Part shown: positions 29,636-37,231 of the stretch, piece after piece
How positions within the stretch are numbered: the stretch's first letter is position 1
Layout of the letters: every line of letters begins with the position of its first letter
Sequence record: NC_028957.1
Strand: one strand, 5' to 3'
DNA: 64,000 bases
From: Escherichia phage vB_EcoM_VR26
Program-made: the position numbers and the translations under genes
The notes under the pieces: generated by a model
What the model was told of the DNA's origin: nothing
Databases searched by the model: none
Seen by the model: the letters and a program-made list of their open reading frames with translations, nothing else

Positions 29636-31942
<2,307 letters not shown>

Positions 31943-31971
31943 AAGTAAAGCAAACTATTAGAGGACTCAAA

Positions 31972-33951
31972 ATGGCTTTATTATCCCCGGGCATTGAGCT
32001 CAAAGAAACAACGGTCCAAAGCACTGTTGTTCGTAACGCGACGGGTCGTGCGGCGCTGGTTGGTAAATTCCAGTGGGGCCCAGCTTTCCAGGTAACTCAG
32101 ATTACAAACGAAGTTGAACTTGTTGATTTGTTTGGTGGTCCGAATAATGAAACAGCAGATTACTTTATGAGTGGGATGAACTTCCTGCAATATGGTAACG
32201 ACCTTCGTACTGTACGTGTTGTTAACCGCGACGAAGCTAAAAACGCATCCCCTGTTGCCGGCAATATTGAAACTACCATCGTTACTGCGGGTACAAACTA
32301 TGCTGTTGGTGATGTTATCCAGGTTAAGCATAACCAGACGGTCGTTGAACCAGCTGGGCGTGTGACCAAGGTTGATGTTGATGGTAAAATTCTGGCAATC
32401 TTTATTCCTACCAATAAGATTATTGCATTTGCTAAAACTATTAATCAGTATCCTAATTTGGGTAGTGCGTGGACTGCAGAAGTTACGACCACTTCTTCTG
32501 GTGTATCCGGTACAATCACTGTAGGTAAAATTGTTACCGATTCAGGTATTCTGTTGACCGAAGCAGAAAACAGTGAAGAAGCAATTACTTCTCTGGAATT
32601 CCAGGCATCTTTAGCCAAATATGCAATGCCAGGTGTTGTTGCTCTTTATCCTGGTGAAATTGGTTCGACTCTTGAAGTTGAAATCGTATCTAAAGCTGAA
32701 TTCGAAAAAGGTGCAACTACAAATCTGGATATTTTCCCTGGTGGCGGTACGCGTGCTTCTGTAGCTCGTGCAGTGTTTAACTATGGTCCTCAGTCCGAAA
32801 ACCAATATGCAATTATCGTTCGCCGTGATGGTGCAATCGTCGAAAACGTTGTTCTATCTACTAAGCAGGGCGAAAAAGATGTTTACGGTAATAATATTTA
32901 CCTGGATGACTACTTTGCAAAAGGTACTTCCAACTACATCTATGCAACATCTCGTAACTGGCCTGTAGGCTTCAGTGGTATTATCAATCTGTCGGGTGGT
33001 ATTTCTGCAAACGATAAGATTACTGCTGGTGATTTGATGCAAGGTTGGGACCTGTTCGCTGACCGCGAAGCTCTGCATATTAACTTGCTTATCGCTGGCG
33101 CGGTCGCTGGTGAAGGTGATGCAACTGCTTCCACTGTTCAGAAGCACGTAGTTTCTATTGCTGACGAACGTCAGGATTGTCTGGCATTCATTTCTCCTCC
33201 GAAAGGGTTGTTGGTTAACGTTCCTCTGACCCGTGCAGTGGATAACCTGATTGACTGGCGTACAGGTGGTGGTACATTCGATACTGATAACATGAATATC
33301 AGCACGACTTATGCAGCGATTGATGGCAACTATAAATATCAGTATGATAAATATAACGACGTTAACCGTTGGGTTCCTCTGGCAGCTGATATGGCTGGTC
33401 TGTGTGCTCGTACTGATGATGTTTCTCAGCCTTGGATGTCTCCGGCTGGTTATAACCGTGGTCAGATTTTGAACGTTCTGAAATTGGCTGTTGAGCCTCG
33501 TCAGACCCAGCGTGACCGCATGTATCAAGAAGCTATCAACCCGGTTGTTGGTTTCGCAGGTGGTGATGGTTTTGTTCTGTATGGTGATAAGACTGCAACT
33601 AAAGTTCCATCTCCGATGGACCATATTAACGTTCGCCGTCTTACGAATATGCTGAAGAAAAATATCGGTGACGCATCCAAATATAAACTGTTTGAGCTTA
33701 ACGATAACTTCACTCGTGCATCATTCCGTATGGAAACTTCTCAATACTTGGATGGTATTCGCGCGCTTGGTGGCATTTATGAAGGTCGTGTGGTTTGTGA
33801 TACTACTAACAACACCCCGTCGGTCATAGACCGAAATGAGTTTGTTGCTAGCATATATTATAAGCCTGCAAGGTCGATAAATTATATCGTGCTTAATTTC
33901 GTAGCAACAAGTACGGGCGCTGATTTTGATGAGTTGATTGGGGTGCAATAA
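31972..33951 (+). CDS. 18: gp18 contractile tail sheath
   Basis: 659 aa, same length as T4 gp18. Confidence 0.95.
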   Translation: MALLSPGIELKETTVQSTVVRNATGRAALVGKFQWGPAFQVTQITNEVELVDLFGGPNNETADYFMSGMNFLQYGNDLRTVRVVNRDEAKNASPVAGNIETTIVTAGTNYAVGDVIQVKHNQTVVEPAGRVTKVDVDGKILAIFIPTNKIIAFAKTINQYPNLGSAWTAEVTTTSSGVSGTITVGKIVTDSGILLTEAENSEEAITSLEFQASLAKYAMPGVVALYPGEIGSTLEVEIVSKAEFEKGATTNLDIFPGGGTRASVARAVFNYGPQSENQYAIIVRRDGAIVENVVLSTKQGEKDVYGNNIYLDDYFAKGTSNYIYATSRNWPVGFSGIINLSGGISANDKITAGDLMQGWDLFADREALHINLLIAGAVAGEGDATASTVQKHVVSIADERQDCLAFISPPKGLLVNVPLTRAVDNLIDWRTGGGTFDTDNMNISTTYAAIDGNYKYQYDKYNDVNRWVPLAADMAGLCARTDDVSQPWMSPAGYNRGQILNVLKLAVEPRQTQRDRMYQEAINPVVGFAGGDGFVLYGDKTATKVPSPMDHINVRRLTNMLKKNIGDASKYKLFELNDNFTRASFRMETSQYLDGIRALGGIYEGRVVCDTTNNTPSVIDRNEFVASIYYKPARSINYIVLNFVATSTGADFDELIGVQ

Positions 33952-34034
33952 TAAATTAGGGGATGAAAGTCCCCTTATCTATTATGGTTGAGTGTAATTG
34001 CTTAACGAAATAGCTTAGACCCATTATACCGTGT

Positions 34035-34042
34035 TATAAATA
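34035..34042 (+). promoter_or_regulatory. late-promoter motif TATAAATA in the 18-19 intergenic region
   Basis: Exact TATAAATA about 115 nt upstream of the HNH ORF. Confidence 0.45.
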
Positions 34043-34157
34043 AAAGCATAAGGCTCCTATAAACGATTATAGAGCACGCAACCTTTAAGTAAGGTGTTTA
34101 TACATAACACGGATAAAATCGTCCCAGAATCGTTCTGGTGTGTGATTTGAGGCTACT

Positions 34158-34841
34158 ATGATAGTAAGTGATAAACAACTCGTTAATGTAACAAACAGAA
34201 ATGTGACAAATTTGCGTGAGCAAGGTTATGACGTTTTAATCGGAACAAAACATTTGGTGAAAATCGAGCATTTAGGTAAGCGAACTAAAATCGATTGCAA
34301 ATGTGATAAATGTGGTGATGAATACACTGTCACCCAAGATAAAATAAACGAAATCAATATCCAATTCTGCAAAAGCCATAGATGGGAAATTTATTCGGAT
34401 TTGCGTAAAGAATTTTGGAACACACCGGATGGACTAAAAATTCGAAAATCTAAAGGTGCAAAAATCTCCAAAGCCAAAAAGGGTATTCCTTGTATAAATA
34501 CACGCGGGGAATTAAATGGACGATATAATCCGAGATTACGAGAATTTAAACGGTATGCATATGCAGTTCGACAATTCACCGCGTTAAATTTTAAATCTGA
34601 AGTCGAAAATCTCCCAAATTTTGAAAAGACCGGGCGGGCTGGAATTGACGGTGCATATCAGTTAGACCACAAGGTTTCCATTAAATATGGATTTGAAAAT
34701 AATATAGACCCCTCAATCATTGGACATATTTTAAATCTTGAAATGATTCCGTGGGAATTGAATCGAGCAAAGGATATAAATAATAGTATATCAATTCTCG
34801 ATTTACAAAAATATATAGAAAATTATCATAGGAAACAATAA
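34158..34841 (+). CDS. HNH homing endonuclease (Mob-like)
   Basis: C-terminal DHKVSIKYGFENNIDPSIIGHILNLEMIPWELNRAKD HNH motif; Cys cluster CKCDKCG; inserted between 18 and 19. Confidence 0.75.
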   Translation: MIVSDKQLVNVTNRNVTNLREQGYDVLIGTKHLVKIEHLGKRTKIDCKCDKCGDEYTVTQDKINEINIQFCKSHRWEIYSDLRKEFWNTPDGLKIRKSKGAKISKAKKGIPCINTRGELNGRYNPRLREFKRYAYAVRQFTALNFKSEVENLPNFEKTGRAGIDGAYQLDHKVSIKYGFENNIDPSIIGHILNLEMIPWELNRAKDINNSISILDLQKYIENYHRKQ

Positions 34842-34844
34842 CTT

Positions 34845-35336
34845 ATGGAACTTACAGATATCACCAGAGCCTTCGAGTCGGGTGACTTTGCTCGCCCTAA
34901 CCTGTTCGAAGTCGAAATCCCATTCCTGGGTAAAAACTTTGCTTTCCATTGTAAAGCAGCCCCGATGCCAGCAGGCATTGTAGAAAAAGTACCAGTTGGT
35001 TACATGAACCGTAAAATCAACGTTGCGGGAGACCGTACATTTGATGACTGGACTATTACGATTTATAACGACGATGCTCATAAAGTTCGTCAAGCAATTG
35101 TTGATTGGCAAAATATGTGTCACGGTATGACCAACGAAATTACCGGTGCAGCTCCTGCTGATTATAAGAAAACCGCTACTGTTCGCCAGTTCCATCGTGA
35201 TGGCAAGACCGTTACTAAAGAAGTTGTTATCACCGGCATGTGGCCAACTAACGTTGGGGAAGTCCAGATGGATTGGGACAGTAATAATGAGATTGAGACA
35301 TTTGAAACAACGTTTGCAATTGACTGGTGGGAATAA
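34845..35336 (+). CDS. 19: gp19 tail tube protein
   Basis: 163 aa, same length as T4 gp19. Confidence 0.95.
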   Translation: MELTDITRAFESGDFARPNLFEVEIPFLGKNFAFHCKAAPMPAGIVEKVPVGYMNRKINVAGDRTFDDWTITIYNDDAHKVRQAIVDWQNMCHGMTNEITGAAPADYKKTATVRQFHRDGKTVTKEVVITGMWPTNVGEVQMDWDSNNEIETFETTFAIDWWE

Positions 35337-35337
35337 G

Positions 35338-35345
35338 TATAAATA
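35338..35345 (+). promoter_or_regulatory. late promoter TATAAATA for gene 20
   Basis: Exact TATAAATA just after the gene 19 stop. Confidence 0.6.
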
Positions 35346-35353
35346 AAGTTATT

Positions 35354-35371
35354 ATGAGGCTTCGGCCTCAT
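35354..35371 (+). other. hairpin in the gene 20 leader
   Basis: ATGAGGC TTCG GCCTCAT; only two T follow and it lies downstream of the late promoter motif, so probably a leader structure rather than a terminator. Confidence 0.35.
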
Positions 35372-35393
35372 TTCCCAAACTTCGGAGACTCTA

Positions 35394-36968
35394 ATGGCAG
35401 GTTTTAATACAATACTAAATTTTCTTAAGCCTTGGGCTAAAGAAGATGAACAAGAATATAAGCAACAAGAAAAAAATAATTTAGAGTCAATGACCGGGCC
35501 GAAGTTTGATGATGGGGCTCGCGAAATTGAGTCACAAGAACAAAACGTCCCGTATAATGCATTGATGCAACAGATGTTCGGGAGCAACGAACCGGAAGTA
35601 AAAAACACCAGGGAATTAATTGACACATACCGCAACCTACTAAATAATTATGAAGTTGATAACGCGGTTCAAGAGATTGTGTCTGATGCCATCGTATTTG
35701 AAGACGGCAAAGATGTTGTAGCTCTTAACCTTGATGCTACCGAATTTAGTCAGAAAATTAAAGACCGAATTCTTGAAGAATTCTCGGAAGTTAATAACCT
35801 CCTTAATTTCGAGCGTAAAGGTTCTGACCACTTTAAACGTTGGTATGTGGATTCTCGAATTTTCTTCCACAAAATTATCAACCCTTCAAAACTTAAAGAA
35901 GGCGTTCAAGAACTTCGTCGCCTTGACCCAAGACAAATCCAGTTCATCCGCGAAATCGTTACACGCATGGAAAATGGTACGAAAATTGTTGACGGTTACA
36001 GAGAATATTTTGTATACGATACAGGTCATGAAAGTTATTGTGCCGATGGTCGTATATATGAAGCGGGTACTAAAATAAAAATTCCTCGTGCGGCAATTGT
36101 ATATGCGCATTCCGGATTACTTGATTGCTGCGGTAAGAATATCATTGGATACCTGCAACGAGCAATCAAACCTGCAAACCAATTAAAACTATTAGAAGAT
36201 GCTTTAGTCATTTATCGTATAACTCGTGCTCCAGACCGCCGAGTCTTTTATATCGATACTGGGAATATGCCGTCTCGTAAAGCAGCAGCACATATGCAAC
36301 ATATTATGAACACGATGAAAAACCGTGTCGTATATGATGCAACTACGGGTAAAATCAAAAACCAACAGCACAATATGTCAATGACAGAAGACTATTGGTT
36401 GCAACGTCGTGACGGTAAAGCAGTCACCGAAGTTGATACTCTCCCAGGTGCACAAGGCATGTCGGATATGGACGATGTTCGCTGGTTTAAGAACAACCTA
36501 TATCAGGCTCTCAGAATTCCATTATCTCGTATCCCTAATGACCAGAACAGCGGCGTTATGTTTGATGCGGGGGCGACAATTACTCGCGATGAATTGAATT
36601 TCTCTAAATGGATTAGACAACTACAGAATAAATTTGAAGAAGTTTTCCTCGACCCGCTTAAAACCAACCTTATCCTGAAAAAAGTTATTTCAGAAGAGGA
36701 ATGGGACAAGGAACTAAATAATATTAAAGTTACGTTCAACCGTGATAGCTATTTCACCGAAATGAAAGATGCAGAAATCATGGAACGCAGAATCAATATG
36801 CTAACGATGGCTGAACCGTTTATCGGTAAATATATTTCGCATCAAACGGCTATGAAGGATTTCCTCCAGATGTCTGATGAAGAAATTAATCAAGAAGCTA
36901 AGCAAATTGAATTGGAGTCCAAAGAGGCTCGTTTCCAAAACCCTGAAGAAGAAGAAGAGGATTTCTAA
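35394..36968 (+). CDS. 20: gp20 portal vertex protein
   Basis: 524 aa, same length as T4 gp20. Confidence 0.95.
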
Positions 36969-37231
36969 TGGATGATTTATTTGAAGCCATTAAATCAAAC
37001 GACCTCGTAGCCGTTCGCAAATATTTTGCTGAAAACATTGGCCCAGTATGCGGTAGTTTGATTCAAGAACGTAAGATTGAAATTGCACGTTCCATCATGA
37101 TTGAAGGCGAAGAGCCTAAAGAAGATGATGAAGACGATAAAGATACCAAGGACGAGAAGAAAGATAAAAAAGATTCTGACGATGCCGATGAAGGCGACGA
37201 TGATGATGAAGACGATGAGGACGACGAATAA
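36968..37231 (+). CDS. 67: gp67 prohead core protein
   Basis: 87 aa, acidic C-terminal tail; synteny. Confidence 0.8.

Follow-up and report, generated by a model that had tools for sequence, protein, structure and literature searches.

The 227-aa open reading frame (ORF) between the tail sheath gene 18 and the tail tube gene 19 of Escherichia phage vB_EcoM_VR26 is probably (about 70%) a free-standing gene of the homing-endonuclease type, a member of the T6 ORF19.1 family that homes into 18-19 junctions lacking the gene. Its product would combine a zinc-ribbon-like N-terminal module, a basic linker and a divergent C-terminal HNH (beta-beta-alpha-metal) domain. The ORF would be transcribed late, from a native promoter at 34035, on a bicistronic message shared with gene 19, and in a mixed infection the protein would recognise the 18-19 junction of relatives without the gene and nick or cut it. 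The target would most likely lie close to where gene 19 starts or gene 18 ends, and, judging from the conserved residues and the predicted fold, H171 would act as general base and D170 and N202 would bind the metal. Repair by recombination with the carrier would then copy the gene, together with short flanking tracts, into the cut genome, and the mosaic flanks are consistent with this step. The carrier itself may be protected by its replaced spacer and by 10 synonymous changes in the first 36 nt of gene 19, and the cassette would supply substitute signals for gene 19, namely a TATAAATA at 34775 and an AGGAAA at 34830.

A wider joint reading is possible but should be taken as tentative. The ORF19.1 family could form a branch of HNH homing endonucleases that has gone unrecognised, with a C-terminal catalytic domain and 4,278 cluster representatives, in which two clades partition the 18-19 spacer into sub-sites, clade B is hard to lose through its embedded gene 19 signals, and the endonuclease message is leaderless in other genera.

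The ORF19.1 family has been seen at the 18-19 spot since the 1990s. Current understanding of T-even homing endonucleases is unchanged. The family was already known at this locus, and it is the allele that is new. The more notable aspects are a branch with no Pfam model, two clades dividing one spacer, and gene 19 signals that lie inside the element. The analysis also offers a probable function for the proteins of PHROG 5104, which are mostly labelled 'hypothetical'. If the nuclease is active, localised gene conversion and marker exclusion at the tail sheath/tube junction would be driven by this gene, which would also be one more selfish gene to have captured an essential neighbour's expression signals.

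Genomic context of the insertion

The window, that is the whole 64,000-nucleotide stretch of NC_028957.1 that was analysed, belongs to Gaprivervirus, the group of VR7 and SP18, and contains a T4-type late gene block in which each gene has strong Pfam and PHROG matches (Table 1). Between genes 18 and 19, a non-coding spacer of 206 nt (33952-34157) precedes the ORF, and a gap of 3 nt separates its stop codon from the ATG of gene 19. The preliminary description, made from the letters alone, had placed a 227-aa ORF here behind a spacer of about 200 nt with an exact TATAAATA, and these coordinates are confirmed (206 nt; motif at 34035-34042). It had also described genes 18 and 19 as adjacent in T4, which is correct: the T4 spacer is 116 nt long and has no ORF.

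Table 1. Features of the region between the terminase and portal genes (positions in the window)
Feature	Position	Strand	Evidence or remark
gp17, terminase	30107-31939		
Gene 18, tail sheath (left flank)	31972-33951	+	five tail-sheath Pfam domains (best E 2.1e-38), phrog_23
Hyper-polymorphic tract, 3' end of gene 18	33855-33945	+	22 mismatches in 91 nt against UPEC01, after ~350 nt of near-identity
Terminator-like hairpin after gene 18, AGGGGATGAAAGTCCCCT	33958-33975	+	terminator scan; also in metagenomic allele L008
Retained native late-promoter block, with TATAAATA at 34035-34042	34016-34051	+	34 of 36 nt as in the empty-site spacer of UPEC01
Cassette-specific leader	34052-34157	+	without counterpart in empty-site relatives; 93-98% identical in L008 and L009
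Leader hairpin	34124-34138	+	G-U wobble pairs become Watson-Crick pairs in L008
GAGG ribosome-binding site of the ORF	34149-34152	+	5 nt before the ATG
227-aa ORF, putative free-standing HNH-like homing endonuclease, clade B	34158-34841	+	ATG start; stop TAA at 34839-34841
N-terminal beta-rich domain (residues 1-90), presumed DNA-binding module	34158-34427	+	putative zinc ligands C49, C52, C71, H74
Basic low-confidence linker (residues 91-125)	34428-34532	+	pLDDT <50 at residues 103-116; KSKGAKISKAKKG resembles NUMOD3 motif
Internal TATAAATA number 1	34493-34500	+	exact; kept in L008, absent from L009
C-terminal HNH-like nuclease domain (residues 126-215)	34533-34802	+	D170-H171 at 34665-34670, N193 at 34734-34736, N202 at 34761-34763
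Internal TATAAATA number 2, candidate embedded late promoter for gene 19	34775-34782	+	exact; in three of three window-type alleles
AGGAAA, ribosome-binding site for gene 19	34830-34835	+	in the last codons of the ORF (CAT AGG AAA CAA TAA); replaces native AAGAGGA
Gene 19, tail tube (right flank)	34845-35336	+	PF06841, phrog_45 (E 4.1e-65)
Synonymous tract at the start of gene 19, possibly left by co-conversion or a target variant that resists cleavage	34850-34880	+	10 mismatches in 31 nt against UPEC01
gp20, portal	35394-36968		

Over positions 31500-37000 the best relatives are 93-97% identical with only 84% query coverage, and the gap is the 18-19 interval. In UPEC01, PSD2001, VR25, SP18 and YenP8 the spacer is empty, about 205 nt long, and has, besides two predicted late promoters, the AAGAGGA ribosome-binding site of gene 19. 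VR7, DK-13 and TH57 have a different gene of 201 aa, 'gp19.1', whose product is 35% identical to that of the window ORF; it follows gene 18 directly and the native spacer is kept downstream of it. The allele of the window is found in none of the 93-97% identical relatives, and further afield T4 is empty and T6 is occupied. Presence and absence are thus sporadic at one locus among close relatives, which is the distribution expected of a free-standing homing endonuclease gene.

The only remnant of the native spacer in the window is a block of 36 nt around the first promoter, 94% identical to UPEC01. From this block to the ATG of gene 19, the cassette-specific leader and the ORF have taken the place of the native sequence with its second promoter and ribosome-binding site. 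The base composition of the ORF is foreign as well, at 33.6% GC (GC3 27.6%), where genes 18 and 19 have 44%. These comparisons give good support to a real insertion of the ORF between the two tail genes, and the insertion accounts for the local synteny break inside a highly conserved block of structural genes. The insertion proposed in the preliminary description is therefore upheld by the empty spacer of the closest relatives, the foreign base composition and the mosaic flank, and the comparison of the junction across relatives that it recommended returned either an empty spacer of about 205 nt or a different occupant in the closest of them.

Domain architecture of the encoded protein

The window protein is basic (pI 9.4) and is matched end to end, over residues 1-227, by phrog_5104 ('unknown function', E 6.5e-73). 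In its N-terminal domain, which is modelled confidently (pLDDT about 90), C49, C52 and C71 are nearly invariant in family alignments and position 74 is C or H; T6 ORF19.1 gives a weak match (E 0.013) to the treble-clef zinc-finger model PF14311. For the linker, NUMOD3 has a significant match in one family member and none in the window protein.

The C-terminal domain carries the residues on which a nuclease assignment depends. Y133, D170, H171, G178, N193 and N202 are invariant in an alignment of 50 members, and L194, W199 and K205 are nearly so, with L194 and K205 kept in at least 90% of members; D170-H171 is invariant in alignments of 14, 15, 30 and 50 members. The resulting pattern, ...LDH...(21)...NLxxIPWxxNxxK, has the spacing of the HNH motif with the cysteines replaced. 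As in HNH domains, a candidate catalytic His follows an Asp at the end of the first strand, since the predicted strand 167-171 ends at D170-H171, and an Asn at the start of the second strand is followed by a metal-ligand Asn in the next helix and x-x-K, with strand 194-198 and helix 199-204 predicted. AlphaFold models are confident, both at full length (pLDDT 81.9) and for the C-terminal domain alone (pLDDT 87.6, pTM 0.78), and in them H171 closes one strand, N193 opens the strand after it and N202 falls in the helix that comes next. In the intron-encoded phage HNH homing endonuclease I-HmuI, the corresponding residues are D74/H75...N87...N96, and the two Asn are 9 residues apart, as are N193 and N202. 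Small HNH nicking endonucleases of phages and bacteria, GVE2 HNH (PDB 5h0o) and Gme HNH (PDB 4h9d), are candidate structural relatives, and HNH nucleases appear to be the best structural matches.

The preliminary description had called the ORF an HNH-motif gene and had named a profile search for the domain as the check. The motif itself stands, in D170-H171...N193-L194...N202-x-x-K205. The profile search returned no match and by that measure the claim fails: none of the curated HNH profiles in Pfam and NCBIfam matched the window protein, and none of the 50 family members has a match to the Pfam HNH clan. Similarly, profile searches of PDB sequences with the full-length protein, the 50-member alignment and a domain-only alignment recovered no HNH chains, and Foldseek found no match in the PDB for the full-length model. 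The only matches in the sequence-profile searches, zinc-finger and leucine-rich-repeat ones, were set aside as noise or spurious, the latter falling on the NLxxIPWxxN segment. PHROGs named 'HNH endonuclease' or 'homing endonuclease' were also rejected as evidence for HNH, as they match only the N-terminal helix-turn-helix or DUF7487 modules of family members and not the nuclease domain. Taken with the conserved residues and the models, the C-terminal domain is probably a divergent HNH domain, in a branch that the HNH models of Pfam miss and that has no Pfam model of its own.

The missing profile match would also suit a sequence-specific DNA-binding or regulatory protein, for instance a modulator of the late tail genes, whose HNH-like motif would be a degenerate or chance resemblance and which would not act as a nuclease. 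Such a protein could likewise be basic, carry a zinc-ribbon-like module and be encoded at a late promoter, and I-TevI demonstrates that homing endonucleases can act as repressors in addition (PMC2988022). This explanation is nevertheless improbable. The invariant residues of the 50-member alignment are the catalytic-type D-H, N and N rather than surface or DNA-contact positions, HNH nucleases appear to be the best structural matches, and the gene-splitting insertions of other family members would be hard to explain.

Family distribution, alleles and selection

With a full-length profile match and a gene at the 18-19 position, the window protein falls within the T6 ORF19.1 family (PHROG 5104). 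This PHROG has 241 phage records, almost always annotated 'hypothetical', and thousands of metagenomic relatives, and a literature search found no published characterisation of the family for either clade. In a profile search of 1.84 billion cluster representatives, 4,278 relatives were recovered, most of which share just the C-terminal ~100 residues and have varied N-terminal parts. Other members join this C-terminal domain to helix-turn-helix, NUMOD3 or DUF7487 modules, which annotated homing endonucleases have as well.

At the Straboviridae locus, all of the members inspected (12/12: VR7, DK-13, T6, RB3, 4S, HMGUkp2, CHI14, IME540, Bp7, S16, Acj61 and Thanatos-2) are located between gp18 and gp19, and KMB20, with two members, was inspected in addition. 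The members inspected span Tequatrovirus, Gaprivervirus, Dhakavirus, Winklervirus, Gelderlandvirus, Karamvirus, Lasallevirus and a Shewanella phage. The members fall into two clades, which also differ in placement. Clade A (T6, VR7, RB3, Acj61, Thanatos-2 and KMB20_a) adjoins gene 18 and does not disrupt the native spacer; clade B (the window, 4S, IME540, Bp7 and KMB20_b) abuts gene 19 and replaces its promoter and ribosome-binding site. In Enterobacter phage KMB20 (L031 607-2008), a clade-A gene (199 aa) comes first and a clade-B gene (230 aa), which overlaps the beginning of gene 19, comes second; given this tandem pair, the two clades use distinct sub-sites of one spacer.

Elsewhere, members of the family are found within or beside interrupted genes. 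Campylobacter phage WX1 (L012 1730-2848) has a 372-aa member between two nrdA fragments, and Campylobacter phage CP21 (L013 1619-2785) has one of 388 aa between fragments of its tail sheath gene. In Acinetobacter phage 133, a member stands beside a split rnlA. An intein nature of the gene-splitting Campylobacter members was considered and is unsupported, as no Hint/intein domain was detected in them.

The homologs at the same position in 4S, HMGUkp2, CHI14 and IME540 are 52-59% identical to the window protein, and VR7 gp19.1 is matched by BLASTP with an E value of 4e-30. Two window-type alleles from metagenomes, with 88% and 74% amino-acid identity, have the same gene context. By these comparisons the allele of the window is new, its best match being 59% in sequenced phages and 88% in metagenomes. 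One of the metagenomic alleles (L009; contig SRR31646604_268570, 1-900) is a mosaic: its leader and the first ~53 nt and last ~35 nt of its ORF match the window at about 98-100% identity, and in the centre of the ORF protein identity is only ~74% and dS is 1.14, compared with 0.28 for gene 19. This pattern points to recombination breakpoints inside the endonuclease gene.

Against the metagenomic alleles, dN/dS is 0.17-0.19 in both domains, which argues that the protein is under purifying selection. This bears on whether the ORF might be decaying or non-functional, the remnant of an old insertion. Some copies in the family do look degraded, such as that of S16, annotated as only 106 aa. For the window ORF, however, a remnant is highly improbable: its 227-aa frame is intact, as in seven alleles, dN/dS is low in both domains, and a proper GAGG ribosome-binding site stands 5 nt before the ATG. 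The S16 member itself (L020 1201-1695; gp100.1) has tblastn similarity over 492 nt and is possibly decayed or frameshifted.

Relation to known phage endonucleases

The nearest named relatives are T6 ORF19.1 and VR7 gp19.1, which belong to the same family, occupy the same 18-19 locus and have the same architecture, with an N-terminal CxxC...CxxC/H and a C-terminal D-H/N/N. They are, however, only 32-35% identical to the window protein and belong to the other clade (A rather than B). Among characterised systems, I-HmuI and the Mob proteins are the closest analogues of the window ORF. The T4 Mob genes (MobA-E) are intergenic, sporadic nuclease genes of T-even-type genomes, often without a promoter of their own; they sometimes carry promoters for the downstream host gene, and their HNH chemistry usually results in a nick (PMC2988022). 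The order of domains differs, since Mob proteins have the HNH domain at the N-terminus and the DNA-binding part at the C-terminus (PMC2988022), the reverse of the window protein. In hhalign, the window protein and a Mob-like protein of Acj9 have no detectable sequence similarity (probability 0.1%).

A gene of another type has been described in the same junction, F-LimVIII in the gp18-gp19 spacer of the Ackermannviridae phage LIMEstone1 (PMC3296691). It belongs with F-LimVII of the same phage and Hef of phage U5 to the Hef-like homing endonucleases. In this Dickeya phage (L032 8128-9918), the gene lies on the opposite strand and encodes DUF7487 and a Vsr-like nuclease, and it is unrelated to the window ORF; the same junction has thus been colonised by different nuclease types. 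The catalytic domain of F-LimVII and F-LimVIII is of the Vsr-like/REase_MTES_1575 type, unlike that of the window protein. Of 50 family members, 12 have the DUF7487 module of F-LimVIII joined to the window-type nuclease domain; the window protein has no such module. A Hef-like identity for the window protein was rejected, as it has neither DUF7487 nor a Vsr-like domain and hhalign gives probabilities of 1.1% for F-LimVIII and 0.1% for F-LimVII. A scan of 100 kb of Acj9 found no annotated Hef and no similarity to the window ORF.

Endonuclease genes are also present one interval further on. IME540 (L006 3681-4262) has a different endonuclease gene between gp19 and gp20, with matches to phrog_314 ('homing endonuclease', E 1e-29) and phrog_10820 ('HNH endonuclease'), and Bp7 (L023 from 2403) also has a different endonuclease gene at gp19-gp20, where the window has only a 57-nt spacer. 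This makes the 18-19-20 block a hot spot for endonuclease genes.

Sequence tracts flanking the insertion

Both flanking genes depart locally from the otherwise near-identical sequence of UPEC01 (Table 1). The tract at the 3' end of gene 18 is almost the same as in VR7 and is mosaic across the genus. At the 5' end of gene 19, all 10 changes are synonymous and lie within the first 36 nt, after which there is no mismatch to UPEC01 for ~300 nt, and this 5' haplotype resembles those beside clade-B genes in other genera. The tracts are consistent with what co-conversion or target-site immunity would leave.

The association of the tracts with occupancy is not strict. DK-13 and TH57 have the gene, yet their gene 18 ends are of the 'empty' type, and SP18 has an empty spacer, yet a window-type start of gene 19. 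As flank haplotypes do not strictly track occupancy, the tracts could be ordinary recombination mosaics, and they are taken here as consistent with homing and not as proof of it. In SP18 (L018 2658-2700), 36 of the first 39 nt of gene 19 are those of the window-type haplotype, which may be the footprint of a past occupancy or a naturally resistant target allele.

Expression signals at the junction

The motif TATAAATA occurs 21 times in the window (16 of the 21 on the + strand) compared with 4.97 +/- 2.48 in shuffles, a fourfold enrichment that puts these sites far above chance. At 34035-34042 the exact motif has a position conserved among relatives, as expected of a T4-type late promoter, and the block around it is kept in all aligned Gaprivervirus spacers and also in L008 and L009. 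By the alignments, this TATAAATA is the predicted first late promoter native to the spacer, and the insert did not bring it in. As the motif is native, the two roles suggested for it in the preliminary description, driving the endonuclease or driving gene 19, are not exclusive, since one late transcript would carry both. A late transcript from 34035 would hold a 115-nt leader, the GAGG site, the ORF and gene 19. A stable regulatory RNA structure across the whole leader was considered and is not supported, as the fold is not unusually stable (z -0.21).

Within the ORF there are two further copies of TATAAATA, where about 0.13 would be expected from its composition (P of two or more about 0.007). 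The copy at 34493 is kept in only one other allele, and its significance is therefore doubtful. The copy at 34775 stays in all three window-type alleles while adjacent synonymous sites vary around it. It starts 70 nt upstream of the ATG of gene 19, compared with 60 nt for the native promoter that was displaced. The junction ATAGGAAACA(A/C)TAACTTATGGA, which leads into gene 19, is common to the window, 4S, HMGUkp2, CHI14, IME540, L008 and L009; a scan of viral contigs for this conserved junction matched only two already known phages. As the native proximal promoter and ribosome-binding site have been replaced by the cassette, gene 19 expression would now be wired through the element, and we infer from position and conservation that the TATAAATA at 34775 and the AGGAAA at 34830 substitute functionally for the lost signals. 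Neither the displaced signals nor the conserved internal TATAAATA figured in the preliminary description.

A review by Edgell, Gibb and Belfort describes several T4 seg and mob genes as cassettes that lack a promoter, displace signals of the host and hold within themselves promoters for the gene downstream (PMC2988022). The arrangement in the window agrees with this description, with displaced host signals and a candidate embedded promoter for its downstream neighbour.

These same signals could be read another way, as belonging to a nuclease gene that was once mobile, has stopped homing and is kept for what it supplies to gene 19, perhaps with the nuclease also excluding co-infecting relatives without spreading. 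Loss of a cassette that has replaced native promoter 2 and the gene 19 ribosome-binding site would harm the expression of an essential, high-copy structural gene, an argument for retention that has been made in the same form for T4 segG, segA and mobB (PMC2988022). The conservation of the ribosome-binding-site junction across genera and of the internal TATAAATA among alleles agrees with this, and purifying selection is compatible with any useful function of the protein. This reading is considered unlikely, as the distribution is still sporadic within one genus, the alleles are strongly mosaic and two clades occur in the same spacer, which together argue for ongoing movement rather than fixation. 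A gene that still homes is the preferred reading.

The arrangement upstream of the ORF differs in other genera. In the clade-B carriers 4S (L003 2488), HMGUkp2 (L004 2422) and IME540 (L006 2422), the 18-19 interval has a single TATAAATA, which ends exactly 5 nt ahead of the endonuclease ATG, and in CHI14 (L005 2421), also of clade B, the distance is 6 nt. With the usual spacing of T4 late start sites, late transcripts of these four phages would begin at the AUG itself. If that spacing applies, their endonuclease message would be leaderless and would serve mainly as a leader for gene 19. The window allele is unlike these four in having a 115-nt leader and a ribosome-binding site.

Another exact TATAAATA is located at 35338-35345, 2 nt past the stop codon of gene 19, and is followed by the GC-rich hairpin GAGGCTTCGGCCTC upstream of gene 20. 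From this position it is probably the late promoter of gene 20, standing beside a terminator-like element.
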